A stretch of DNA of 37,030 bases from a virus (IMGVR_UViG_2861069343_000007:1-37030), one strand, 5' to 3'. Positions 935 through 37,030 are shown, counted from the stretch's first letter. A program made the numbers and translations. Notes: generated from the sequence alone by a model not told the origin.

Positions 935-2620
935 GTGAATATAAACGTCGCCGAATTGTTAAATGGGAATTACATTCTGTTATTATTTGTGGTCCTCGCG
1001 CTTGGGCTATGTCTCGGAAAGTTACGACTTGGTTCGATCCAACTGGGTAATTCCATTGGCGTTTTAGTCGTATCGCTGTTATTAGGCCAACAACATTTCA
1101 GCATTAACACCGATGCGCTTAATCTTGGCTTTATGCTGTTTATTTTCTGCGTCGGGGTCGAAGCCGGACCGAACTTTTTTTCCATTTTTTTTCGCGATGG
1201 GAAAAATTACCTAATGTTAGCACTGGTGATGGTTGGCAGTGCGCTGGTGATCGCCTTAGGGTTAGGTAAGCTGTTTGGCTGGGATATTGGCCTGACGGCC
1301 GGTATGTTAGCAGGCTCTATGACGTCGACACCGGTTCTGGTCGGTGCTGGCGATACACTGCGTCATTCCGGCATGGAAAGCAGGCAGCTCTCACTGGCAC
1401 TGGATAATCTGAGCCTCGGGTATGCCTTAACCTATTTAATCGGTCTGGTGAGTTTGATTGTTGGTGCGCGTTACTTGCCGAAATTGCAGCATCAGGACTT
1501 ACAGACCAGCGCCCAGCAAATCGCCCGCGAACGTGGCCTGGACACTGATGCCAACCGTAAGGTTTATTTACCGGTGATCCGCGCCTATCGCGTCGGCCCG
1601 GAACTGGTGGCCTGGACCGACGGCAAAAATCTGCGTGAACTGGGTATTTATCGACAAACCGGCTGCTACATTGAACGTATTCGACGTAACGGGATTCTGG
1701 CAAATCCAGACGGTGATGCCGTGCTACAAATGGGCGATGAAATAGCGTTGGTAGGCTATCCCGACGCCCATGCCCGACTCGATCCCAGCTTCCGTAACGG
1801 TAAAGAAGTTTTCGATCGTGACCTTCTCGACATGCGTATCGTCACTGAAGAAGTGGTCGTTAAAAACCATAACGCTGTAGGTAAACGTCTCGCACAACTG
1901 AAGTTGACCGATCACGGTTGCTTCCTTAACCGCGTCATTCGTAGCCAGATTGAGATGCCGATAGATGACAACGTCGTGCTTAACAAAGGTGACGTTTTAC
2001 AAGTCAGCGGCGATGCCCGCCGCGTAAAAACCATCGCCGATCGCATCGGCTTTATCTCGATTCACAGCCAGGTCACTGACCTGCTGGCATTCTGCGCCTT
2101 CTTTGTTATTGGGCTGATGATCGGGATGATCACCTTCCAGTTCAGCACATTCAGTTTCGGCATGGGGAACGCTGCCGGGTTGTTATTCGCCGGAATTATG
2201 CTGGGCTTTATGCGTGCTAACCACCCGACCTTCGGTTACATTCCGCAAGGTGCATTAAGCATGGTGAAAGAGTTCGGCTTGATGGTGTTTATGGCAGGCG
2301 TTGGTCTGAGCGCCGGTAGCGGTATTAATAACGGCCTGGGCGCGATTGGCGGTCAGATGTTGATTGCCGGATTAATTGTCAGTCTTGTGCCCGTGGTTAT
2401 CTGTTTCTTGTTCGGTGCTTATGTATTGCGAATGAACCGCGCACTGTTGTTCGGCGCAATGATGGGCGCACGCACCTGCGCGCCGGCAATGGAGATCATC
2501 AGTGATACAGCTCGCAGTAACATCCCTGCGCTGGGCTATGCGGGCACCTACGCAATCGCCAACGTCCTGCTGACGCTGGCAGGGACAATCATCGTCATGG
2601 TATGGCCAGGATTAGGATAA
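935..2620 (+). CDS. ybjL: Putative transporter YbjL (AAE family, duplicated membrane domains with central TrkA-C-like region)
   Basis: 561 aa; hydrophobic N- and C-terminal halves around a soluble middle; recognised as E. coli YbjL. Confidence 0.9.
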
Positions 2621-2732
2621 AACTGAAGTTGCCCTGAAAATGAAATTTTTTTGCACAACCGCAGAACTTTTCCGCAGGGCATCAGTCTTAATTAGTGCCA
2701 CTGCTTTTCTTTGATGTCCCCATTTTGTGGAG

Positions 2733-14340: not shown

Positions 14341-14686
14341 TCTCTGCTCCTGTTGATACGGAAAGGGAAACAGGCACACCGTTATTACGCCGCCCGGTCA
14401 GCCCCACCACCATTGAACCGTCAAAATTGCTTTTAATGGTGATGGAATCCAGCGTCAGCCGTGGCTCCCAGCGACTCAGCGCCACATACACTGCCGACAT
14501 GACCTGCAGGCGTAATGCCGGATTTTGTGGCTGGTCTATCAGTGTCGACAGCAGGGAACCATATTCACGACGGGCAATGCGGCTACCCTGCGGTGTCAGT
14601 AGAATGTCCCGCACCGACTGACGCAGATGGTCAATATCAGTAATGGCTTTACCGCTGGTATTGTTCATCCCGATATAAAGCGTCAT
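14327..14686 (-). CDS. W: Baseplate wedge protein gpW
   Basis: 119 aa; position between V and J. Confidence 0.8.
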   Translation of the reverse strand: MTLYIGMNNTSGKAITDIDHLRQSVRDILLTPQGSRIARREYGSLLSTLIDQPQNPALRLQVMSAVYVALSRWEPRLTLDSITIKSNFDGSMVVGLTGRRNNGVPVSLSVSTGAENGSD

Positions 14687-15261
14687 ACCGGACCTCCGGT
14701 TGTATCGCCGCCTTTCAGGACGCCAGTATGCTGATGCGCATCAACCACGATCCCGTTAGAACTCATCGCTCCGCCGCCCTGGGTAACGCCACCATTGATC
14801 ACCACTTCGCTGTTAATGCGCGTGCGGTCAGCCTCCAGTACAAACTCACTGGTTTTCATGGTGATGTTGTCAGCGGCCTCAATGACCATTGATTTGATGC
14901 CCCTGACATACCAGCGCCCGGTGGCGGGTTCGTATTCAAACCAGCCGCCGTCCGGGTATTCCGTCACGTTGCCGTCCTCAGAGCCTGAAGGTGGCGGAAA
15001 CTGGTTTGAGTAGACCGCAGGCAGGGCAAACGAGGTTTCCAGATTGCCGCCAAGGCTGAACAGCACAACCTGCTCACCCACAGACGGTTTCCACCAGGTG
15101 CGCGATTTGCCCGCGCGCAGTGTCAGCCAGTTAATCCAGTTGGTTTCGAGGTCGCCAGTTTTCACCCGACACAGCCAGTTTGCCCTGTCCACTTCGGTGA
15201 CTACACCTGTGCGGATCAGGTTGGTGATAAGGCGCATGATTTCGGTTAATTGTGCGTTCAT
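14683..15261 (-). CDS. V: Baseplate hub/spike protein gpV
   Basis: 192 aa; P2 V-like (…RAGKSRTWWKPSVGEQV…). Confidence 0.85.
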   Translation of the reverse strand: MNAQLTEIMRLITNLIRTGVVTEVDRANWLCRVKTGDLETNWINWLTLRAGKSRTWWKPSVGEQVVLFSLGGNLETSFALPAVYSNQFPPPSGSEDGNVTEYPDGGWFEYEPATGRWYVRGIKSMVIEAADNITMKTSEFVLEADRTRINSEVVINGGVTQGGGAMSSNGIVVDAHQHTGVLKGGDTTGGPV

Positions 15262-17811: not shown

Positions 17812-18015
17812 TCAGTCCCATAGCTGGACGGTCTGCACGGTGGTGGTGGTCGGAATGTCCGGCAACTCCACCTGCAGCCCGTGAGGTAAAAAGGGGCCGT
17901 ATTCGGCAAGCCCCGGATTTGCCTTCAGTACCTGCTCCGTGACACCCTGCGTGCGCCCGTAATGACGCCAGCAAAGCGCGTCCACCGTGTCATACTGATG
18001 CGCACGCACTTTCAT
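17812..18015 (-). CDS. X: Tail protein gpX
   Basis: 67 aa; P2 X-like (…YGRTQGVTEQVLKANPGLAE…). Confidence 0.85.
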   Translation of the reverse strand: MKVRAHQYDTVDALCWRHYGRTQGVTEQVLKANPGLAEYGPFLPHGLQVELPDIPTTTTVQTVQLWD

Positions 18016-18362
18016 CAGATAAGCTCCACTGTGCAGTGCGGCGCATCCTGCACCCGGCTGATGGCCCAGCGGGCGTCACGCCACAAATCACCGCTTGCTT
18101 CCGCCAGTTCCTCGCCCCGCTTCACACCGGACGCCGTGGCGTCATAGTCCTGGTAACGTTCGTTGAGCATGGCGCGTGCCCAGCAGTAAACCGCGTTGAA
18201 ATAGTGCTGAATGCGCTCACTTTTGCCGTCCAGCTGTTCCGCCGGAACCTCTGCCAGCGACGCATACCCCAGCATCTGCTGGCGTCTGCGAAACTCATAC
18301 AGCTCTGCGTTGACCTCCGAAATTGCCGACAGCGCAACCTGCTTTAAACGCGGCTGCGTCAC
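18015..18362 (-). pseudogene. L: Head completion protein gpL, N-terminally truncated (C-terminal ~2/3 only)
   Basis: 115 aa aligning with the C-terminal part of P2 gpL (…NAELYEF…DLWRDARWAISRVQ…); GTG start abuts the stop of the N fragment. Confidence 0.65.
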
Positions 18363-18715
18363 AGGTCCAGCTTCGCGTAGGTCAGCACCGTGTCAAAGTT
18401 GGTCTGCTCGCATTTATATTCCACATCGACCATCAGCGTCGGATCGACAGGTTCACGCTCTTTCGCGGTGGTGTCAGTGGTTCCGGCAATGGTGCTGCCA
18501 ACTCCCAGCCCCAGCAGCTGACCGGACTGCTCAGTCACTGGCGTGACGTTAATCAGCGTCAGGAAAGCGGCGGACTGCTGGATCTGGTCTTCCAGCGTCT
18601 GCTGCACAGACGGCTCCACGGTGAACTTGCTGGACAGTTCTTCAACTGCCACACCGTTCAGACGCGCCAGCTGCTGCAGGTAAGCGTTAAAAGCAAAGCG
18701 GGTATTCTTCTTCAT
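18359..18715 (-). pseudogene. N: Major capsid protein gpN, N-terminal fragment (118 aa of an expected ~350 aa)
   Basis: MKKNTRFAFNAYLQQLARLNG…FTVEPSV… matches the P2 gpN N-terminus; stop at the position where gpN normally continues. Confidence 0.65.
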
Positions 18716-22499: not shown

Positions 22500-22535
22500 T
22501 TTTAAAACGAAGACCATTAGGTCTTCGCTTTATTT
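22500..22535. terminator. Bidirectional terminator between convergent Q and retron RT
   Basis: 8-bp stem cgaagacc / ggtcttcg (loop atta), flanked by ttttaaaa upstream and ctttattt downstream; RT stop codon lies in the loop. Confidence 0.55.
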
Positions 22536-23479
22536 AAAGGGTTCTTTCCATATTTTTTTTCTAATTTGCTAATATAAGCTATTAATCTTCTATGGCTTTT
22601 TGAATCCACACTTAAAATAAATGACAACCATCCCCTAACGTGTTCTATCTCAGAAGATTTACCGCAAAATATATGATGTATCTTTGCTCTAATTTCTTTA
22701 TATTTTTCTCTACCTATCCCAACTTTCTCTTGTGAAATAACTAAACCTGTAACTTTCCTCTGACTACGAGGCCCACTAATACAAGTTTTTTTTGAGTTAA
22801 TAACCAATCCTTCACTTGGGATTATAGAAAATAAAAAATCACGTGCTTTAACAACCTTTTTCATAGACTGTGCAGATAAGGTGAGATCATCGGCATATCT
22901 CGTATATATCAAGCCCCGACTACCTGCATAGCCCTGAATACGATAATCAAGTTTTGAACATATTAGATTAGCTAATTTAGGTGATGATGGAGCACCTTGT
23001 GGTAGCAGATTTTTATAACAACATATTTTTGTCAAAACTGAAGATATTAGTCGATTATAACCAAGAGAATGGAACACTCCAAAAACTTTGTTAGCAGTTA
23101 AACTTGGGAAAAAATCCTCCAAATCAATATTCAGTATAAAGTTTGCCCCAATATGCGGGGTAGCATTATTCAAAATAGATTGGTGCTTTTCAAATCCAAT
23201 AGAAAAAGGAGATGACGACAGTTTATCTAAAATGTTACGTAGAACCCATCCTTGTAAGGCTTTAAGTTCTCGAGAAGGTTGGTAAATGGTTCTCATTCTC
23301 TTCTCTGGGCCTTTCTTTTCTACAGTGTAGATCCTATAGCGAAAATCAGCTGTATAGATTAACAACCGAAGTGTTTCAACAGATATGCGAGTCGCCTTAG
23401 ACATGTCATGCAAATTGTTCATGACAGGTAGGCCGAGATTTCTCAATCTAAAAGTGTTCAAATATTCAGCGGATTTCAT
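22517..23479 (-). CDS. ret: Retron reverse transcriptase (Retron-Eco1 / Ec86 RT)
   Basis: 320 aa; RT motifs including YADD (YTRYADDLTL); start codon 7 nt downstream of the a2 repeat of msr-msd. Confidence 0.93.
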   Translation of the reverse strand: MKSAEYLNTFRLRNLGLPVMNNLHDMSKATRISVETLRLLIYTADFRYRIYTVEKKGPEKRMRTIYQPSRELKALQGWVLRNILDKLSSSPFSIGFEKHQSILNNATPHIGANFILNIDLEDFFPSLTANKVFGVFHSLGYNRLISSVLTKICCYKNLLPQGAPSSPKLANLICSKLDYRIQGYAGSRGLIYTRYADDLTLSAQSMKKVVKARDFLFSIIPSEGLVINSKKTCISGPRSQRKVTGLVISQEKVGIGREKYKEIRAKIHHIFCGKSSEIEHVRGWLSFILSVDSKSHRRLIAYISKLEKKYGKNPLNKAKT

Positions 23480-23485
23480 GAAAGT

Positions 23486-23654
23486 TGCGCACCCTTACGT
23501 CAGAAAAAACGGGTTTCCTGGTTGGCTCGGAGAGCATCAGGCGATGCTCTCCGTTCCAACAAGGAAAACAGACAGTAACTCAGATTCAATGCAGGATGCC
23601 GAAACAACATCCAGAGGTTGACCTTAATGATAAACCTCTCGCTAAGGGTGCGCA
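23486..23654 (-). ncRNA. msr-msd: Retron msr-msd non-coding RNA (Ec86 msDNA template)
   Basis: Plus strand 23499..23585 reads gtcagaaaaaacgggtttcctggttggctcggagagcatcaggcgatgctctccgttccaacaaggaaaacagacagtaactcaga, recognised as Ec86 msd; flanking inverted repeats a1/a2 TGCGCACCCTTA at 23643..23654 and 23486..23497. Confidence 0.9.
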
Positions 23655-24565
23655 TACGGAATCTTATCATAGTTAAATGTTGATTTTCTACGGTTTTCAA
23701 AATTCATAATCTCAAGCCGCAATCGGTCAAGTGTCTTTCTATCAAAGACGCTCCTAACATAGCTAGCCCCCAAAGCAGTGACCTGATAACCATCAGTCAT
23801 TTGAAGTATTTTTCGTTCATTTATTAGACGAGAAACAACGGATCTAACAATAATTTTAGATAAAACATCATCTTGCTTTATCGCTTTAAAAGCTAGTTCA
23901 CACAGTGTGCGGTAGTTGACACTATCCAGTAAATAGATACAAGGCAATAGAAACCGCTCTGCGTATAATATATTTCCAATATCTTTTGATACTTTATTTT
24001 CTTTCCTAACCTGCTTAATAGATGCCATTAATTTTTTATATAATCGTAATTTTCTGGCAACATCAATAGATGAATCACACATTTCTTTTAGTTCATTTGA
24101 ACTACAACGCAAAACAGATTTTGAATTAAACTTACGCAACAGGCGAACAGGACCATAGTTAATAAAGCTACGTTTTGATTTAAATTTTGCATCTTGAATG
24201 CAAATCAACTTTCTCCTTAAGTTTTCATTATTAGAGAACGCACCAAGCTCTGTGAAAGACCCCGGACTTTCAGGAAATAAAATTATTACATCGACAGCTT
24301 CAGCCAGAATATTTTCTAAACTTAAAAGGCTATGCTGCCCTTGACCAGCCAAAAGATCATCAAATAGATCTTCTGGATAAAATATATCAACATCACTGAA
24401 CTTTGCTAAAAATTGTGATAATTGATGACGCCAAGATTGATGATTAGCAACGTCACCACCACATAGAAAAATGGTTATTTTAATATTAGCTCCTCGATAG
24501 AAGCCTTTCTTTGTGAGATGTCCTATAAGCTGTTGTTGCTGCTCATCGGTAAATTTTTTATTCAT
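23642..24565 (-). CDS. Retron-Eco1 accessory effector (nucleoside deoxyribosyltransferase-like domain protein)
   Basis: Immediately upstream of msr; start assigned to MNKKFTDEQ (ATG 24565..24563, GGAG 4 nt upstream) though in-frame ATGs exist upstream (24595, 24754); stop overlaps a1. Confidence 0.75.
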   Translation of the reverse strand: MNKKFTDEQQQQLIGHLTKKGFYRGANIKITIFLCGGDVANHQSWRHQLSQFLAKFSDVDIFYPEDLFDDLLAGQGQHSLLSLENILAEAVDVIILFPESPGSFTELGAFSNNENLRRKLICIQDAKFKSKRSFINYGPVRLLRKFNSKSVLRCSSNELKEMCDSSIDVARKLRLYKKLMASIKQVRKENKVSKDIGNILYAERFLLPCIYLLDSVNYRTLCELAFKAIKQDDVLSKIIVRSVVSRLINERKILQMTDGYQVTALGASYVRSVFDRKTLDRLRLEIMNFENRRKSTFNYDKIPYAHP

Positions 24566-24637
24566 AATCTCCCCGCTTTTTTCTACTTTATACATCAAGT
24601 TATGAATAGATCCAATCTCCATACCCCATGGCGCGCG

Positions 24638-24656
24638 CTCGTATCCCCGCCACGCC
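24638..24656. other. Candidate cos site (cohesive end)
   Basis: Minus strand reads GGCGTGGCGGGGATACGAG, resembling the P2 cohesive end GGCGAGGCGGGGAAAGCAC as recalled; inside a short GC-rich patch between two AT-rich islands. Confidence 0.4.
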
Positions 24657-24697
24657 TGCCCGCTTTGTGTAGTGGTTTTCATGCACCTGCATGACAT

Positions 24698-24722
24698 AAG
24701 TAAAAGCCCGCCAGAACTGGCG
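24698..24722 (-). terminator. Hairpin with U-tract on the minus strand in the cos-proximal region
   Basis: cccgccag..ctggcggg stem (24706..24722) followed on the minus strand by a T-run. Confidence 0.35.
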
Positions 24723-24874
24723 GGACTGAGCAAAAACGATCCTTTTGCGATCATTCATTTTCATGCGCTATAGTCATGCAACAAACGCATACGAACCATA
24801 TGGTTAGATTACTCATCAAGTCAGATGGATTTTCAGGCAGATTGCCACAGCAATTGTAAAGGAGCGAGATTGAA

Positions 24875-25876
24875 ATGGGTGGAGAGACTTCGGCTATACA
24901 ACGAGTCGCGGGTAAGATTTCTGATGATATTTTCTCAGTGTTCAAATGGGATCGTGCCGCTAGAGCGGACATGAATTGGGATTGTTGCCAAGAGGCTCAT
25001 TCCAAGAAAACACATCCAAGCGATGTTGTATTTTTCTACATAGATCCATATGAGGAGGAAATGGTCTATCTCAACACAGACCTCAAAAGCTATGCAGAAG
25101 GTACTATTGGGAAAAAAATAGTCGAGGGAGCTTTAACATCGCTTGCTTTAGCTACCGAATGTGCAAATGTCAGTGAAGAATGGCGATTGAAATATGTTCA
25201 TGATGATTCTTTAGGTTATAACGTAAGAGGGTTATTATTCTTATATAACCATGATAATTTATATGATAAAGACTTCTATGAGAATATTACAAAAAAATTA
25301 GATCACTCATCTATAAATTGCCCTCCAAACATCAAACTACATTTGCTTGACCCTTATAAAATATCAGATTTGATAAACATATCTTCTGACATAACTAAGT
25401 TAATTGGTTCAGGCAAACTTCCTCAACCTGATAAGTTCACATATTATTATCCAGATCTTTCCCTAACAAGAATAAAGCACCCTATTAATCAGACAACACC
25501 TGCAACAATTGAATTATTAACATCACCATACATTATAATAAAGCATGAGGCTTTCAGTTGGCTCAGGGATAAAAACCCTGAGGGATATGTTGTTTATTAC
25601 AATCAACCGGGGGATTCAGTAGACGAATTCGTTTACTTCTTTGATATGTTATCAACTTATCAGATATTAACCGAAGGTAAACCAATCGTATTACGCCATT
25701 GTCACATTCACCCAAATGAAAATGCCATTCATCATTTTGAAAGAGCGAAAAAGAAATACAGCACAGACTGGCTCTTAGGCGAGGATGAAAGACTTTTTCT
25801 TAAAATTGACTTCGACAAGACAGACAAAATTGTTGTTGAATATAATCTTGAACAAATCGGCATGGAGCAACGATAA
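24875..25876 (+). CDS. Hypothetical protein, first gene of three-gene cargo operon
   Basis: 333 aa; AGGAG upstream; AT-rich codon usage unlike the phage backbone; no family recognised by eye; possible PD-(D/E)xK-like pattern VVFFYID…NTDLK (speculative). Confidence 0.7.
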   Translation: MGGETSAIQRVAGKISDDIFSVFKWDRAARADMNWDCCQEAHSKKTHPSDVVFFYIDPYEEEMVYLNTDLKSYAEGTIGKKIVEGALTSLALATECANVSEEWRLKYVHDDSLGYNVRGLLFLYNHDNLYDKDFYENITKKLDHSSINCPPNIKLHLLDPYKISDLINISSDITKLIGSGKLPQPDKFTYYYPDLSLTRIKHPINQTTPATIELLTSPYIIIKHEAFSWLRDKNPEGYVVYYNQPGDSVDEFVYFFDMLSTYQILTEGKPIVLRHCHIHPNENAIHHFERAKKKYSTDWLLGEDERLFLKIDFDKTDKIVVEYNLEQIGMEQR

Positions 25877-26955
25877 TGGCTAAAAAACTATATTTCGCAA
25901 CTGATAAAAATATTTATGATGCATTACATCATAAAAGGATAACCGCTGCAAAGTTGCATGAATTATTGTTGAATCGAGGTGTGTTTTTATCACCAGAACT
26001 CGACAAGGAAATACTAATCGAGGAAATATCCAAACTTCCTCACGGATTTAATGAATTAGAACACATAAAAAAACTGGTCAAAACATATGACCCAAGGGAA
26101 AGCACTACTAGTGTGAGCTTCCAAACCTCAACAAATCAGGCCGAATTAAAAAGTGCTGCTGAAGCACTAAAAAAAACATGCTCCCCTAGTAAAGGTCAAA
26201 GCCTGAATATTGTAGCTAAAAAAGATGGCTCGCTTACAGTAGAATACAAATATGAAGAAATAGACCTGTCTAAAACTGCATTACGTCAGATCGACAAGCG
26301 GAATGTTATAATAGAACTTCGCCCTGGAGCTGACAAAGTTGAAGTACGTATGCCTCAAAACCCCGAGGCAAAAAAAGTTATTGAGAGCTTGCAAAACGAG
26401 CTATCTAAAATCAAGTCCGAACCTATCGAGCGCTTCGAAATATCATTACTAGCAATAACTGATCCTACATTGCGAAGTCAGTTTTTTCAGGAATTAATGA
26501 ATGGTCTACGCGGTTATGAGACTGATGACGTAACAAAAGTCGAATTAAATCGCAGTACTGATGCTAGTGAGGATGAAGACAAGGAAGAAACTATTGATAC
26601 CGGATTTGTTAAGAAAGCTGTCCTTAATGGTGAAGGGGTAAATAGTTCAGCTATATTTTCTCAACTACATGAGAAAGGTTATTATATCGGGCGTATTGCA
26701 TGGTCTTCAAAGCCGACAAGTGGAATTGGAGACAGAATCAACGTCGAAGCATTTTTCAAAGACTCAGAAAAATGCTGTGACTTTGCCTATCAAATTAAAG
26801 GTATAAACAATCAAAAAGAAGACGGTTTCAATGTAACCATTCGCGCGGCAACAGCACAAGAGAAAAAACATATTAGTGAATTAATTGAGTCCGCCGCTGA
26901 AAATGCCTATAATATAATAATAGGATCAGAGGTGAACGAAGATGAAAAAGGTTAA
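25876..26955 (+). CDS. Hypothetical protein, second gene of three-gene cargo operon
   Basis: 359 aa; start overlaps upstream stop (TAATG); charged and Lys/Glu-rich; no recognisable motif. Confidence 0.7.
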   Translation: MAKKLYFATDKNIYDALHHKRITAAKLHELLLNRGVFLSPELDKEILIEEISKLPHGFNELEHIKKLVKTYDPRESTTSVSFQTSTNQAELKSAAEALKKTCSPSKGQSLNIVAKKDGSLTVEYKYEEIDLSKTALRQIDKRNVIIELRPGADKVEVRMPQNPEAKKVIESLQNELSKIKSEPIERFEISLLAITDPTLRSQFFQELMNGLRGYETDDVTKVELNRSTDASEDEDKEETIDTGFVKKAVLNGEGVNSSAIFSQLHEKGYYIGRIAWSSKPTSGIGDRINVEAFFKDSEKCCDFAYQIKGINNQKEDGFNVTIRAATAQEKKHISELIESAAENAYNIIIGSEVNEDEKG

Positions 26956-27625
26956 ATGGCTTAAGTTAAACATACGGCTTGAGTTTGAAACAGCCGTTAG
27001 ACGTCTTTCTCTTGATTCTTTTACAGAGGATAAAGGGAAAGGGTTCATTTTTGATAAAATACGCCATGATTTTGCAAATGGTCGCTTTGTCGAGCGTATT
27101 GTTTATCATGATAAAATATTAAGCTTTGACGGAAGCGAAACTACCGTTGAAAGAATCGAATATCGCACCACAAATTTTAGCGTGGCTTTAGACTCTCTTC
27201 CTGTAATGCAGATTACTAACCCACCCAGAACTTTAAAGCCTTTTTCGCAGGCTTTGGTAAAAAATCTTGGCTTAGGTGTTAGTTTGGAAGAAATTGACAT
27301 AAACCCTATAGACTGGCTTAATGAAATATCTTCAAGTGTAAATATCAATTTAACACAACTTGATATTTCAAGGGTTAGAGTTTCTGATTACGCCACAGCT
27401 AAAATGCAAATAATTGGCAGCAATGATCTTAGGAAGTATTATAAAGAAGAATTAGAGGGTAAAAAAATAAGAATTGACAGGCTTGTTTGCTCTGTTAATT
27501 CATTAGAATATTCCGGTAAGCTCAAGATCACCAATAGCGGCCTTGCTTATATTGATGTTAGAAATGAGAATGAGTTTACGAAAATCGTTTTTGATACGTT
27601 AAAAAAAGTCACCCTTCAATCATAG
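26942..27625 (+). CDS. Hypothetical protein, third gene of three-gene cargo operon
   Basis: 227 aa; 14-nt overlap with upstream gene; no recognisable motif. Confidence 0.7.
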   Translation: MKKVKWLKLNIRLEFETAVRRLSLDSFTEDKGKGFIFDKIRHDFANGRFVERIVYHDKILSFDGSETTVERIEYRTTNFSVALDSLPVMQITNPPRTLKPFSQALVKNLGLGVSLEEIDINPIDWLNEISSSVNINLTQLDISRVRVSDYATAKMQIIGSNDLRKYYKEELEGKKIRIDRLVCSVNSLEYSGKLKITNSGLAYIDVRNENEFTKIVFDTLKKVTLQS

Positions 27626-33785: not shown

Positions 33786-34355
33786 GTGGATTTCAATAGC
33801 GGCGGTAAGAAAACCATAGAACGTTTGGTTGAAGCATACGGGTTCGGTACCCGTCAGGCTCTCTGTGATCATTTAGGTGTTTCTAAGAGCACCATGGCAA
33901 CGCGTTATATGCGTGATATTTTTCCGGCAGATTGGGTAATCCAGTGCGCCCTTGAAACGGGTACCTCGCTTAATTGGCTAACAACAGGGCATGGTTCAAA
34001 GCAAGCATCAGCAAATACAAATACTATAGAAGTAGTAAAATATTTATTGTCTGATGGAGCATTGCAGGAAGACGGTTTTTATATTTTTGATAAGGGATTT
34101 CTACCCTCTACGTTTAAAAAACCTTTTGTCATCACAGATAACAATTCTGAATTTATTTGTGATAAAGAATTTGATGATATACGTGATGGTAAATGGGTAA
34201 TAAGTATTGATGGCGAAATAACAATCCGCGACATCACTCGTTTACCCGGTGGAAGAATTTTCGTTGAAGGTGGAAACAGAGCCTTCGAGTGCAAGATAGA
34301 AGATGTTGAAATAATTGGAAAAATTATAAGCTTAACAGTTAAGTATGTTAGATAA
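33786..34355 (+). CDS. cI: CI immunity repressor (186 type)
   Basis: Resembles 186 CI (…EAYGF…CALETG…NWLTTGHG…); start placed at GTG 33786 with GGAGG 6 nt upstream (ORF-track ATG 33699 would add 29 aa). Confidence 0.8.
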   Translation: MDFNSGGKKTIERLVEAYGFGTRQALCDHLGVSKSTMATRYMRDIFPADWVIQCALETGTSLNWLTTGHGSKQASANTNTIEVVKYLLSDGALQEDGFYIFDKGFLPSTFKKPFVITDNNSEFICDKEFDDIRDGKWVISIDGEITIRDITRLPGGRIFVEGGNRAFECKIEDVEIIGKIISLTVKYVR

Positions 34356-34370
34356 TACCTGGAGGAAACT

Positions 34371-34553
34371 ATGCTTGGTAAGTTTTTTTTTGTGGTTTTA
34401 TCATGCTCTTTGCTATTAAACCCACTAACTACCTATGCTAAAAATTATCCTTGTTCTGGGAAAAAGGGAGGTGTCTCTCACTGTACCTCTGATGGAAAAT
34501 TTGTTTGCAATGATGGAACCATCAGTAAATCCAAAAAAACATGCATCAAATAA
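34371..34553 (+). CDS. Small secreted cysteine-containing protein
   Basis: 60 aa; N-terminal signal peptide, four Cys in mature part; GGAGG Shine-Dalgarno; AT-rich. Confidence 0.55.
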
Positions 34554-34566
34554 TAAGGAAATATGA

Positions 34567-35898
34567 ATGAGCACAGATATAACTTTCGATATACGTGATG
34601 AATATAAAAGAAAAGCCATTGCAGAAAAAATAATAAGTTTGCTAGAGTCTAATATTCCTGTTTCACCTATGGTCATAGATGGGGACTGGGGGACTGGAAA
34701 AACAGAGTTTTCAAAAAAGTTAGCATCCTTAATTGAAATAAACTCGACCAATCATAAAGTAATTTATATAGATGCTTTTACTGAAGATCACAACGATGCT
34801 CCCATACTTACAATAATGGCCGCAATTGCAGCTCTATATAATAGCGATGAAAAAAAGGAATTAATATCTAAGGCATTGCCAGCCCTCAGATTCGGACTTA
34901 AGACTGTACTCAAAGCTGGTGCTGGTTGGGTATTAAAACAAAATGCGGATGAAATTAATAAGGAATTTGAAGAGGTTATCAAAGACGCTGCAAATTCAGC
35001 TATCGATGGAACCATCGAGGCTCTGTTAGAAGATCATATCGAGGCACAAAAGAACGTTCTTGCTCTAAAAGAAGTACTAACCAAATTAGCTGGAGAAAGT
35101 AAACTAACAATAATTATAGATGAGTTAGACAGATGTAAGCCTAGTTTTGCCATTTCTATTATTGAAAATATAAAACATGTTTTTGATATAAAAAACATTA
35201 ACTTTTTATTAATTGCAAACACAACTCAACTAAAAGCATCCATAAATCATATCTATGGCTCTTCTGTAGACTCCAACCGTTATCTTGACAAATTTATAAA
35301 ATTTACATACAGCCTTCCTGTTACCTTTAAGGAAGATAATTATAATGATACTTTAACTTCCAAAAATCATTGGATGATGCTATGTGAGCAATCTGAAAGG
35401 CTGACCGCTGCAGTAGAAGCCAGCGAAGATATTTTCTTACAGTTCATTGAAAGTAGAAAATTATCATTACGTGAGGTTGAAACACTTGCTAGATATGTTG
35501 AAATATACCAACTACTATCAGGCGACAAAATTAGCAACAAATATATTTATGGATATTGTTATTACAGGACTCTAGCGATAATAATCTACACTTTTAACCG
35601 AGAGTTAGCTCTCAACTTTCTTGAAGATAAAGTTGATGCTCAATCAATCATGAAATTGTTTGGTTTATCTAAATTTTCATATCAAACAAGTGAATATAAT
35701 GTAGATAATTATGAATATGCTATATTTGGAATAGTTTACAAATACTTATCTGAAAACTCATCTCTTTTACCTGCTGAGGAAAATATAAAAAGACAATGGG
35801 CAGAAATGAGTGAATACCATTTTTTAAAAGGTGGTGGCGGTATTGGTGAACCAACAAATATTGTGAAAGATGCTTTAAAAGTTTTTTTACTTCAGTGA
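34567..35898 (+). CDS. KAP-family P-loop NTPase
   Basis: 443 aa; Walker A GDWGTGKTEF and Walker B IIIDELDRCKP in KAP NTPase arrangement; AT-rich; between cI and int. Confidence 0.8.
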   Translation: MSTDITFDIRDEYKRKAIAEKIISLLESNIPVSPMVIDGDWGTGKTEFSKKLASLIEINSTNHKVIYIDAFTEDHNDAPILTIMAAIAALYNSDEKKELISKALPALRFGLKTVLKAGAGWVLKQNADEINKEFEEVIKDAANSAIDGTIEALLEDHIEAQKNVLALKEVLTKLAGESKLTIIIDELDRCKPSFAISIIENIKHVFDIKNINFLLIANTTQLKASINHIYGSSVDSNRYLDKFIKFTYSLPVTFKEDNYNDTLTSKNHWMMLCEQSERLTAAVEASEDIFLQFIESRKLSLREVETLARYVEIYQLLSGDKISNKYIYGYCYYRTLAIIIYTFNRELALNFLEDKVDAQSIMKLFGLSKFSYQTSEYNVDNYEYAIFGIVYKYLSENSSLLPAEENIKRQWAEMSEYHFLKGGGGIGEPTNIVKDALKVFLLQ

Positions 35899-35977
35899 TA
35901 TGTATGGCTATACAAATTCATACATTGACACTGGTTATACATACAGTAAAAATGCTCTCCACTGGAGGGCATTTTTT

Positions 35978-37030
35978 ATGGCAGTACGAAAACTCACCAC
36001 AGGAAAATGGCTTTGCGAATGTTACCCCGCCGGACGTAGTGGACGTCGTGTGCGTAAACAATTCGCCACCAAAGGCGAAGCTCTGGCTTTTGAGCGTCAC
36101 ACGATGGAAGAAACCGAAGCAAAGCCCTGGCTGGGTGAATCAGTGGATCGTCGAACACTGAAAGACGTGGTTGAACTATGGTTCAAACTACATGGTAAAT
36201 CTCTGACTGCTGGGCAGCATGTCTATGACAAATTGCTGCTGATGGCTGACGCTCTGGGCAATCCCCTTGCAACCGATCTCACATCTAAAATGTTTGCCCA
36301 TTATCGAGATAAACGACTGACAGGTGAGATCTACTTCAGCGAGAAATGGAAGAAAGGAGCCAGCCCGGTCACCATTAACCTGGAGCAAAGCTATCTAAGT
36401 AGTGTTTTTAGCGAACTATCCCGTCTGGGCGAATGGTCGTATCCGAACCCACTGGAGAACATGCGAAAATTCACCATCGCAGAAAAAGAGATGGCATGGC
36501 TTACCCATGAGCAGATTGTTGAATTACTGGCTGATTGCAAACGTCAGGACCCAATTCTGGCACTGGTAGTTAAGATATGCTTAAGCACAGGCGCACGCTG
36601 GCGAGAAGCCGTAAATCTTACTCGTTCACAGGTGACCAAATACCGAATTACCTTTGTCAGAACGAAGGGGAAGAAAAACAGAAGCATCCCTATCAGTAAA
36701 GAGCTTTACGAAGAGATCATGGCGCTTGATGGGTTCAATTTCTTCACAGACTGCTATTTTCAATTTTTATCCGTGATGGAAAAAACGTCTATCGTGCTCC
36801 CTCGCGGTCAACTGACACACGTTCTGCGCCATACGTTTGCGGCGCACTTCATGATGTCGGGTGGAAACATCCTGGCCTTACAAAAAATTCTCGGACACCA
36901 CGATATAAAAATGACTATGCGTTACGCACATCTGGCACCGGATCATCTGGAAACGGCGCTCCGTTTCAATCCTCTGGCAACATTGCCAAGTGGCGACAAA
37001 GTGGCGGCAGCGGTTGGCATTACCCCGTAA
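35978..37030 (+). CDS. int: Tyrosine integrase (P2/186 family)
   Basis: Start at MAVRKLTTGKWLCECYP (GGAGGG upstream); C-terminal catalytic region …HVLRHTFA…MTMRYAHLAPDHL…; stop at window end. Confidence 0.9.
   Translation: MAVRKLTTGKWLCECYPAGRSGRRVRKQFATKGEALAFERHTMEETEAKPWLGESVDRRTLKDVVELWFKLHGKSLTAGQHVYDKLLLMADALGNPLATDLTSKMFAHYRDKRLTGEIYFSEKWKKGASPVTINLEQSYLSSVFSELSRLGEWSYPNPLENMRKFTIAEKEMAWLTHEQIVELLADCKRQDPILALVVKICLSTGARWREAVNLTRSQVTKYRITFVRTKGKKNRSIPISKELYEEIMALDGFNFFTDCYFQFLSVMEKTSIVLPRGQLTHVLRHTFAAHFMMSGGNILALQKILGHHDIKMTMRYAHLAPDHLETALRFNPLATLPSGDKVAAAVGITP

Follow-up and report, generated by a model that had tools for sequence, protein, structure and literature searches.

Several KAP-type NTPases are described as anti-phage proteins. 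The F-plasmid protein PifA causes abortive infection and thereby excludes phage T7; it is devoid of the membrane helices that are typical of prokaryotic KAP proteins, though not universal among them, and its action involves membrane depolarisation and nucleotide leakage (PMC13001434). The Enterococcus protein EF_KAP is a validated defence protein that depends on its Walker B motif and is reported to be non-abortive (PMC12632615), and Reve, a single-gene KAP system borne by P4, gives strong protection against Drexlerviridae (bioRxiv 10.64898/2026.02.27.708500). Defence hotspots of P2-family phages have also been described (Rousset 2022; Vassallo 2022; a 2026 preprint). The 2026 preprint found the integrase-primase interval to be a minor P2 hotspot, with 8% of the systems, and KAP_NTPase among the domains of unannotated P2 cargo. 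In K139-like Vibrio phages, a hotspot lies between the repressor gene (cI) and the integrase gene (int) (Rousset 2022), and the glo gene found at this position in K139 encodes a periplasmic exclusion protein. Here we describe the gene of a KAP-family P-loop NTPase and the gene of a small YdcA-like secreted protein, which lie side by side between cI and int of a P2/186-type prophage on the viral contig IMGVR_UViG_2861069343_000007 (positions 1-37030; the whole stretch of 37,030 nt is hereafter called the window).

A preliminary description of this DNA had stated that cI and int are adjacent in phage 186. Indeed, the two genes share one boundary base in phage 186 and are separated by 3 nt in Fels-2. 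Because they abut in both phages, the DNA found between them in the window is extra. The anatomy of this DNA had also been read correctly, with two open reading frames (ORFs), a Shine-Dalgarno site for each, short spacers and a low GC content. The spacers are 15 nt from the cI stop to the YdcA-like ORF and 13 nt from the YdcA-like ORF to the KAP gene. The GC content is 0.344 in the YdcA-like ORF and 0.325 in the KAP gene, against 0.483 in int and 0.495 in the whole window, and the low GC starts upstream of the cargo, in the C-terminal half of cI (34071-34355; 0.33). As judged from sequence comparisons, the region is a cargo slot of the lysogenic operon, in the order cI, cargo, int, that holds two independently acquired accessory genes.

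A soluble KAP NTPase of the PDC-S20 family

The 443-aa product had been called a KAP NTPase, and the Pfam search confirmed this: KAP_NTPase (PF07693) matched with an E-value of 4.7e-53 and 180.8 bits (cut-off 20), residues 15-316 covering profile positions 1-291 of 293. The PADLOC model PDLC04956 (PDC-S20) matched over nearly the full protein (E = 6.9e-171; residues 1-441 on positions 1-447 of 450), while the other PADLOC matches were weak and limited to PifA, QatA and mad8. By this profile match the protein is a member of PDC-S20, a single-gene candidate family for phage defence; it agrees with the family in length and in its organisation as a single gene, and no sequence difference sets it apart. 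PADLOC entries named PDC are candidates that are defined by association. Among 43 KAP homologues with 39-71% identity, residues G39, W41, G42, G44, K45, D185, E186, L187, D188, R189 and C190 were invariant, and the length of the family stayed at 440-450 aa even at 39% identity.

A membrane prediction had been proposed for this protein, and the helices of classical KAP proteins proved to be absent. The highest 19-residue Kyte-Doolittle mean was 0.93, and with no hydrophobic segment a classical membrane-embedded KAP protein was ruled out. Residues at about 93-175, the usual site of the inserted membrane helices, correspond to a conserved helical insert of low prediction confidence. The AlphaFold2 model (pLDDT 81, pTM 0.76) consists of a P-loop core, the helical insert between Walker A and Walker B, and a helical C-terminal part. 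No domain was detected by Pfam outside the NTPase region, and neither the C-terminal 127 residues nor the helical insert gave anything meaningful in Pfam at E-values up to 1. A sequence search found no relative in the PDB. In a structure comparison, the closest solved folds were the defence ATPases RdrA and BrxC, and ORC/Cdc6/DnaA-like folds were also among the structural neighbours.

PifA shares with the window protein the KAP core, the absence of membrane helices and the occurrence as a single gene on a mobile element. However, only residues 11-252 of the window protein matched PifA, on positions 17-255 of a 720-position profile (E = 4.7e-16), and the large C-terminal region of PifA is absent from the window protein. 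RdrA of the RADAR system is a ring-forming KAP-type ATPase of about 800-900 aa with a partner adenosine deaminase, RdrB, whereas the window protein has 443 aa, shows 11-13% sequence identity to RdrA and has no RdrB-like gene nearby; the locus is thus not RADAR, which consists of RdrA with an adjacent RdrB. Reve and EF_KAP are, like the window protein, single-gene KAP NTPases on mobile elements. Two membrane helices and an effector region of 322 aa are present in EF_KAP but missing here, and Reve (586 aa, translated construct sequence) aligned with the window protein only at Walker A/B (14 residues, BLASTP E = 0.007), so that the two do not belong to one family. An identity with QatA of the QatABCD system was also rejected, as the NCBIfam QatA model gave 41 bits against a cut-off of 600 and the neighbouring genes are cI, the YdcA-like gene and int.

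Separate histories of the two genes

The whole 1.6-kb interval was found in 43 of 5426 complete E. coli genomes. These genomes are of diverse origin, the KAP ORF is intact, and the pair of genes is 99% conserved among them. The YdcA-like gene together with the spacer before int, but without the KAP gene, occurs in hundreds more E. coli genomes. In strain BL21, for example, a 63-aa YdcA-like gene lies between cI and int and there is no KAP gene. We compared 80 IMG/VR contigs that encode an integrase with at least 99% identity to that of the window; in 49 of them the YdcA-like gene is the only cargo of the slot. The cI alleles with at least 95% amino acid identity are accompanied by the KAP gene in two contigs and the window and lack it in 17.

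A blastn comparison with locus L085 and 16 similar loci placed the borders of the KAP indel at 34539/34540 and 35889/35890, with 1350 nt in the window against 123 nt in the KAP-less relatives. Within the 1350 nt lie the 3'-terminal codons of the YdcA-like gene, the Shine-Dalgarno site of the KAP gene and nearly all of the KAP gene. The left border is marked by an A-run and the right one by a 9-nt identity, CTTCAGTGA. Apart from this 9-nt identity at the right junction, the 123-nt segment of the KAP-less relatives showed no similarity to the KAP gene or to other cargo. The last 14 nt of the YdcA-like gene fall within the indel, and the YdcA-like gene was present in the backbone beforehand. Since each gene occurs without the other in the slot and one cI allele is found both with and without the KAP gene, the two genes appear to have been acquired separately. 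The KAP gene is, on this evidence, a separate single-gene cassette, and the YdcA-like gene is the usual resident of the slot.

The preliminary description had regarded the interval as one insert of about 1.6 kb with both genes, a view that the occurrence of the YdcA-like gene alone in the contigs, in BL21 and in the other E. coli genomes contradicts. A related possibility is a joint system of both genes, inserted as a unit, in which the small protein would be a sensor or effector in the periplasm and the KAP protein its cytoplasmic NTPase. Their adjacency, the 13-nt spacer, the similar GC content and the joint conservation of the pair in the 43 genomes would be consistent with such a system. 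However, the distribution of the genes largely refutes it: besides the YdcA-like gene that is alone in most slots and was already present when the KAP indel entered, KAP genes without a YdcA-like gene are found in the same slot, in lambdoid prophages and in islands, and YdcA-like genes without a KAP gene are found in Haemophilus, Moraxella, Acinetobacter and Pseudomonas phages. We therefore regard a joint system as extremely improbable. The proposed check of whether the genes are core genes of the cI-int junction showed that the YdcA-like gene is semi-conserved in the sub-lineage, whereas the KAP gene is rare.

The cI-int slot as a cargo hotspot

The 80 contigs showed at least nine configurations of the slot. 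No defence model matched the cargo of the 49 contigs with the YdcA-like gene alone. PD-Lambda-1 was found in 11 contigs (PADLOC E = 7e-120) and Old in five (PADLOC PDLC02358, E = 9e-235). Three contigs carry a 505-aa KAP protein of another PDC-S20 subfamily (PDLC04959, E = 6e-78), two carry the YdcA-like gene followed by a KAP gene of the window type (PDC-S20), and two carry PDC-M18A/B (E = 2e-36 for A and 5e-24 for B). A pair of 349 and 201 aa, of multi-pass membrane type (three contigs), and a coiled-coil protein of 324 or 355 aa with C-terminal membrane helices (four contigs) had no PADLOC match. In the last contig, int was not preceded by a recognised cI. The slot cargo without a PADLOC match at loci L019, L047, L033, L061, L091 and L097 represents candidate new exclusion or defence genes.

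All the examined examples of slot cargo had a GC content of 0.31-0.36. Each cargo type except KAP was linked to its own cI allele; therefore, the immunity region and the cargo usually move together, which suggests that they are exchanged as one module. Isolated phages show the same pattern: KP12, vB_EcoM-813R9 and 4LV2017 carry other cargo before int, and the integrase gene of the window is 96-97% identical at the nucleotide level to the integrase genes of Klebsiella and E. coli P2-like phages with other cargo. In a search of isolated phage genomes for DNA nearly identical to the window locus, only the integrase matched, and tblastn of the KAP protein against phage records gave five distant matches.

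Judged by its cargo, which includes the validated exclusion and defence systems Old and PD-Lambda-1, the cI-int slot is a diversity and defence hotspot. The earlier reading is upheld in that both genes are accessory cargo of a lysogenic (cI-int) operon, the prophage being 186-like. The slot resembles the hotspots of P2-like phages in its conserved flanks, its AT-rich interchangeable cargo and its validated systems, but the published E. coli P2 hotspots are the gpA-portal interval and the tail region. It also resembles the cI-int hotspot of K139-like Vibrio phages; in K139 the order is cI-orf2-glo-int.

Wider contexts of the KAP family

KAP homologues were found in nine contexts in eight genera, with only the KAP gene common to all of them. 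All the contexts that were inspected are a cargo site of a mobile element or a defence island. The order is cI, a 160-aa gene, KAP and int in Yersinia, and cI, KAP and int in Serratia. In lambdoid prophages of E. coli, Cronobacter, Citrobacter and Klebsiella, the KAP gene lies between the antiterminator gene Q and the holin gene on the opposite strand. The Vibrio homologue adjoins type I restriction-modification genes, and the Photobacterium homologue adjoins DUF4238 and IS66. In Photobacterium (L016 7347-8018), a 223-aa ORF with no Pfam match overlaps the KAP stop by 4 nt, and it may be a partner gene in a non-prophage version of the family. The 160-aa gene of Yersinia (L011 5494-5976) gave a weak match to BRCT, below the cut-off (E = 0.016), and orf2 of K139 (L108 2194-3099), which holds the same position after cI, has a BRCT domain. 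The slot may have a recurrent second resident of BRCT type.

Transcription and the element upstream of int

No convincing terminator and no promoter above chance were found in the stretch from cI to the KAP gene. A promoter of the KAP gene itself was rejected, as nine promoter-like matches were found against 10.2 expected by chance. Given the short spacers, the lack of a strong terminator and the lack of an excess of promoter matches, it is a reasonable inference that the YdcA-like and KAP genes are transcribed together with cI from pL.

Whatever the cargo, a conserved element of 78 nt starts at 35900, where the right border of the slot lies in five aligned phages. This element contains an inverted repeat (ATGTATG..CATACAT) and a promoter-like match (TTGACA-17-AAAAAT), the hexamers of which are recognisable in the Yersinia and Serratia relatives. 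It also contains a hairpin whose 3' arm is the Shine-Dalgarno site of int; a U-run and the ATG of int come next. For this hairpin, RNA folding gave z values of -5.1 and -4.4, and the stem is kept with different sequences, through compensatory changes, in Klebsiella KP12 and in the Yersinia relatives. The hairpin may act as a terminator for transcription from pL, or it may mask the ribosome-binding site of int on the pL transcript, and a local promoter that starts transcription inside the hairpin may free this site.

Proposed function of the KAP protein

We propose that the KAP gene probably provides a single-gene anti-phage function that is carried in the lysogenic operon. The protein would be made continuously in lysogens, from a downstream cistron of the cI mRNA, and, acting alone as an immune protein, it would shield the lysogen from unrelated phages. 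The helical insert, the C-terminal helical domain or both would recognise a phage product, and the NTPase would then oligomerise or cycle like its ring-forming relative RdrA. The outcome would be a PifA-like arrest of the infected cell, by a membrane or nucleotide lesion or a drain of ATP, or the direct disabling of a phage complex; each of these modes of action, taken singly, is at best a minor possibility. A bolder version of the proposal, which we consider doubtful, is that of a self-sufficient minimal KAP immune protein in which, given the lack of a membrane anchor, an effector domain and a partner gene, the NTPase is both sensor and effector, combined with a cI-int slot that serves as a dedicated expression socket. 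Such a protein would act by triggered runaway hydrolysis of NTP, or it would use NTP to dismantle or sequester a phage assembly. The cargo in the socket would be transcribed with the repressor, and the hairpin over the ribosome-binding site would insulate int, which would be served by its own promoter.

Several points weigh against an anti-phage function. The KAP protein has no recognisable effector domain and offers no basis for assigning a killing or blocking activity, and the validated KAP defence proteins are, by the sequence matches obtained, only superfamily relatives of it. PDC-S20 was absent from the literature searched, in which no published test of the family was found. Expression from pL is deduced from the sequence, and the KAP ORF contains a weak match to a terminator. 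Finally, the prophage is defective and its cargo could be decaying, yet the ORF is intact and 99% conserved.

The KAP gene could also be accessory cargo with another function, such as lysogenic conversion of benefit to the host or regulation of prophage maintenance, induction or excision. Its position in the cI-int operon also fits a role in lysogeny, the lack of an effector domain and the ORC/Cdc6/DnaA-like structural neighbours agree with such a role, and no defence phenotype was reported for PDC-S20 in the literature searched. However, a P2-specific role in lysogeny fails for the homologues between Q and holin and for those in non-phage islands near restriction genes or DUF4238. The KAP gene is also missing from most close relatives of the phage, and the other identifiable cargo of the slot is defence, so a function outside defence seems unlikely to us. 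The survival of an intact KAP gene in a prophage that lost its capsid and terminase functions might instead point to a selfish toxic or addiction-type module that stabilises the grounded prophage. Many NTPase defence proteins are toxic once activated, and PifA causes membrane lesions. Against this, no antitoxin-like partner is conserved across the contexts and the lone KAP gene also occurs in intact-looking prophage regions, and we find an addiction module quite improbable. The defective state of the prophage and the AT-rich, foreign-looking composition of the DNA could also be read as a sign that both ORFs are carried along passively or are decaying, and serve no present function. The 443-codon ORF is intact, however, with all its catalytic motifs conserved, its identity is 99% across the 43 genomes of diverse origin, the family holds its length of 440-450 aa at 39% identity, and the four Cys of the YdcA-like protein are kept from E. 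coli to Haemophilus. Decay of both genes is thus very unlikely.

The YdcA-like protein

The small protein encoded upstream of the KAP gene exceeded the cut-off of the NCBIfam equivalog model NF007463 (108.8 bits; cut-off 93) and belongs to phrog_6000 (E = 2e-32); nearly all its homologues carry PF27300 in precomputed annotation. Its N-terminus has the form MLGK-hydrophobic-TYA, with a putative cleavage before the following K, and the mature part of 37 aa is lysine-rich with four Cys. The signal-peptide call is heuristic, with the cleavage site judged by eye. The signal-like N-terminus and the four Cys are kept in the copies of Haemophilus phage HP2 and E. coli BL21. Chromosomal ydcA of E. coli K-12, which encodes a small periplasmic protein, shows about 75% nucleotide identity to the prophage gene, but the copy in the window belongs to a prophage, where it comes after cI in the lysogenic operon. 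A literature search found no functional study of YdcA.

In HP2 (NC_003315.1; L005), the stop codon of cI overlaps with the start of an unannotated YdcA-like ORF of 60 aa (2486-2668, minus strand). The gene order is cI, this ORF, the secreted 254-aa orf1 (Pfam tRNA_anti-like, E = 3e-13) and int. The layout of HP2, with cI, a small secreted protein, cargo and int, is that of the window. The features described here indicate that the YdcA-like protein is a small periplasmic, disulphide-type protein and the default resident of the slot, with a history separate from that of KAP. It may act in envelope-level exclusion by analogy with Glo of K139, but this is a guess that we hold only tentatively.

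Organisation of the prophage and other defence loci

The window sequence is 100% identical to E. coli FDAARGOS_433 and spans from grxA to the stop codon of the prophage integrase gene, which adjoins rcdA. The prophage is of the P2/186 type, with ogr, tail, baseplate, lysis, portal, terminase, gpA, cII, apl/cox-like, cI and int genes; cI is the first gene of the lysogenic operon. According to the RefSeq annotation the prophage is defective, since the major capsid and head-completion genes are truncated pseudogenes. Pseudogenes truncated in this annotation, at about 18015-18715 and 14380-14725, comprise the head-completion, major capsid and tail-fibre assembly genes. Judged from these genes, the prophage appears to be grounded while its cargo genes are intact. 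The coordinates of the features are given in Table 1.

Two defence systems were seen in the classical portal-gpA P2 hotspot of the same prophage (window 22517-27625). One is a type II-A retron with a reverse transcriptase (RT) and an NDT effector. The second system, Hp1/Hp2/Hp3 (3HP), consists of three genes, and its full-length PADLOC matches had E-values of 1e-239, 3e-248 and 2e-157. As the retron and 3HP join the cargo of the cI-int slot, the prophage has at least three defence or candidate loci.

Table 1 Features of the cI-int region and of the portal-gpA hotspot in the window.
Feature	Position	Strand	Basis or detail
Retron RT	22517-23404	-	Type II-A retron
Retron NDT effector	23642-24622	-	Type II-A retron
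Hp1/Hp2/Hp3 (3HP) system	24875-27625	+	PADLOC
cI repressor	33786-34355 (RefSeq start; longest ORF from GTG 33699)	+	Pfam Phage_CI_repr 6.8e-31, Phage_CI_C 1.6e-28
Shine-Dalgarno of YdcA-like gene	34361-34365		GGAGG, 5 nt upstream of ATG (read from sequence)
YdcA-family small secreted protein, 60 aa	34371-34553	+	NCBIfam NF007463, phrog_6000
Predicted signal peptide of YdcA-like protein, residues 1-23	34371-34439	+	By eye
KAP cassette, 1350 nt	34540-35889	+	blastn breakpoints, junction sequences and comparison with BL21
Shine-Dalgarno of KAP gene	34555-34559		AAGGA, 7 nt upstream of ATG (read from sequence)
KAP-family P-loop NTPase, 443 aa, soluble, PADLOC PDC-S20	34567-35898	+	
Walker A GDWGTGKT, residues 39-46 of KAP protein	34681-34704	+	
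Walker B IIIDELDRC, residues 182-190 of KAP protein	35110-35136	+	
Weak terminator-like match in KAP ORF	35600-35613		
Pre-int element, right-hand boundary of cargo slot	35899-35977	+	Conservation, promoter-like match, RNA fold
Promoter-like match in pre-int element	35925-35953		
Hairpin in pre-int element	35948-35976		RNA fold
Tyrosine integrase, last gene of window	35978-37030 (RefSeq start)	+	Pfam Int_N 2.8e-32, Phage_integrase 1.1e-21

Implications

The candidate status of PDC-S20 in PADLOC, the hotspots of the P2 family, the cI-int hotspot of Vibrio phages and KAP defence proteins are already known. In the literature searched, we found no description of the exact slot between cI and int in 186-like phages of E. 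coli, with a YdcA-like gene as its default occupant, or of the conserved element before int. The slot analysis delimits a third well-defined cargo site of E. coli P2/186-like phages, and its three cargo types without a PADLOC match add to the list of candidates. A further possibility raised by the analysis is that the YdcA-family proteins of E. coli K-12 originate as genes of prophage lysogeny operons. If the proposed anti-phage function is true, PDC-S20, which is spread over Enterobacterales and Vibrionaceae, would become a validated system. The KAP protein would then be the smallest known KAP-type immune ATPase and a model for how KAP/RdrA-like ATPases may sense and stop phages with no effector.

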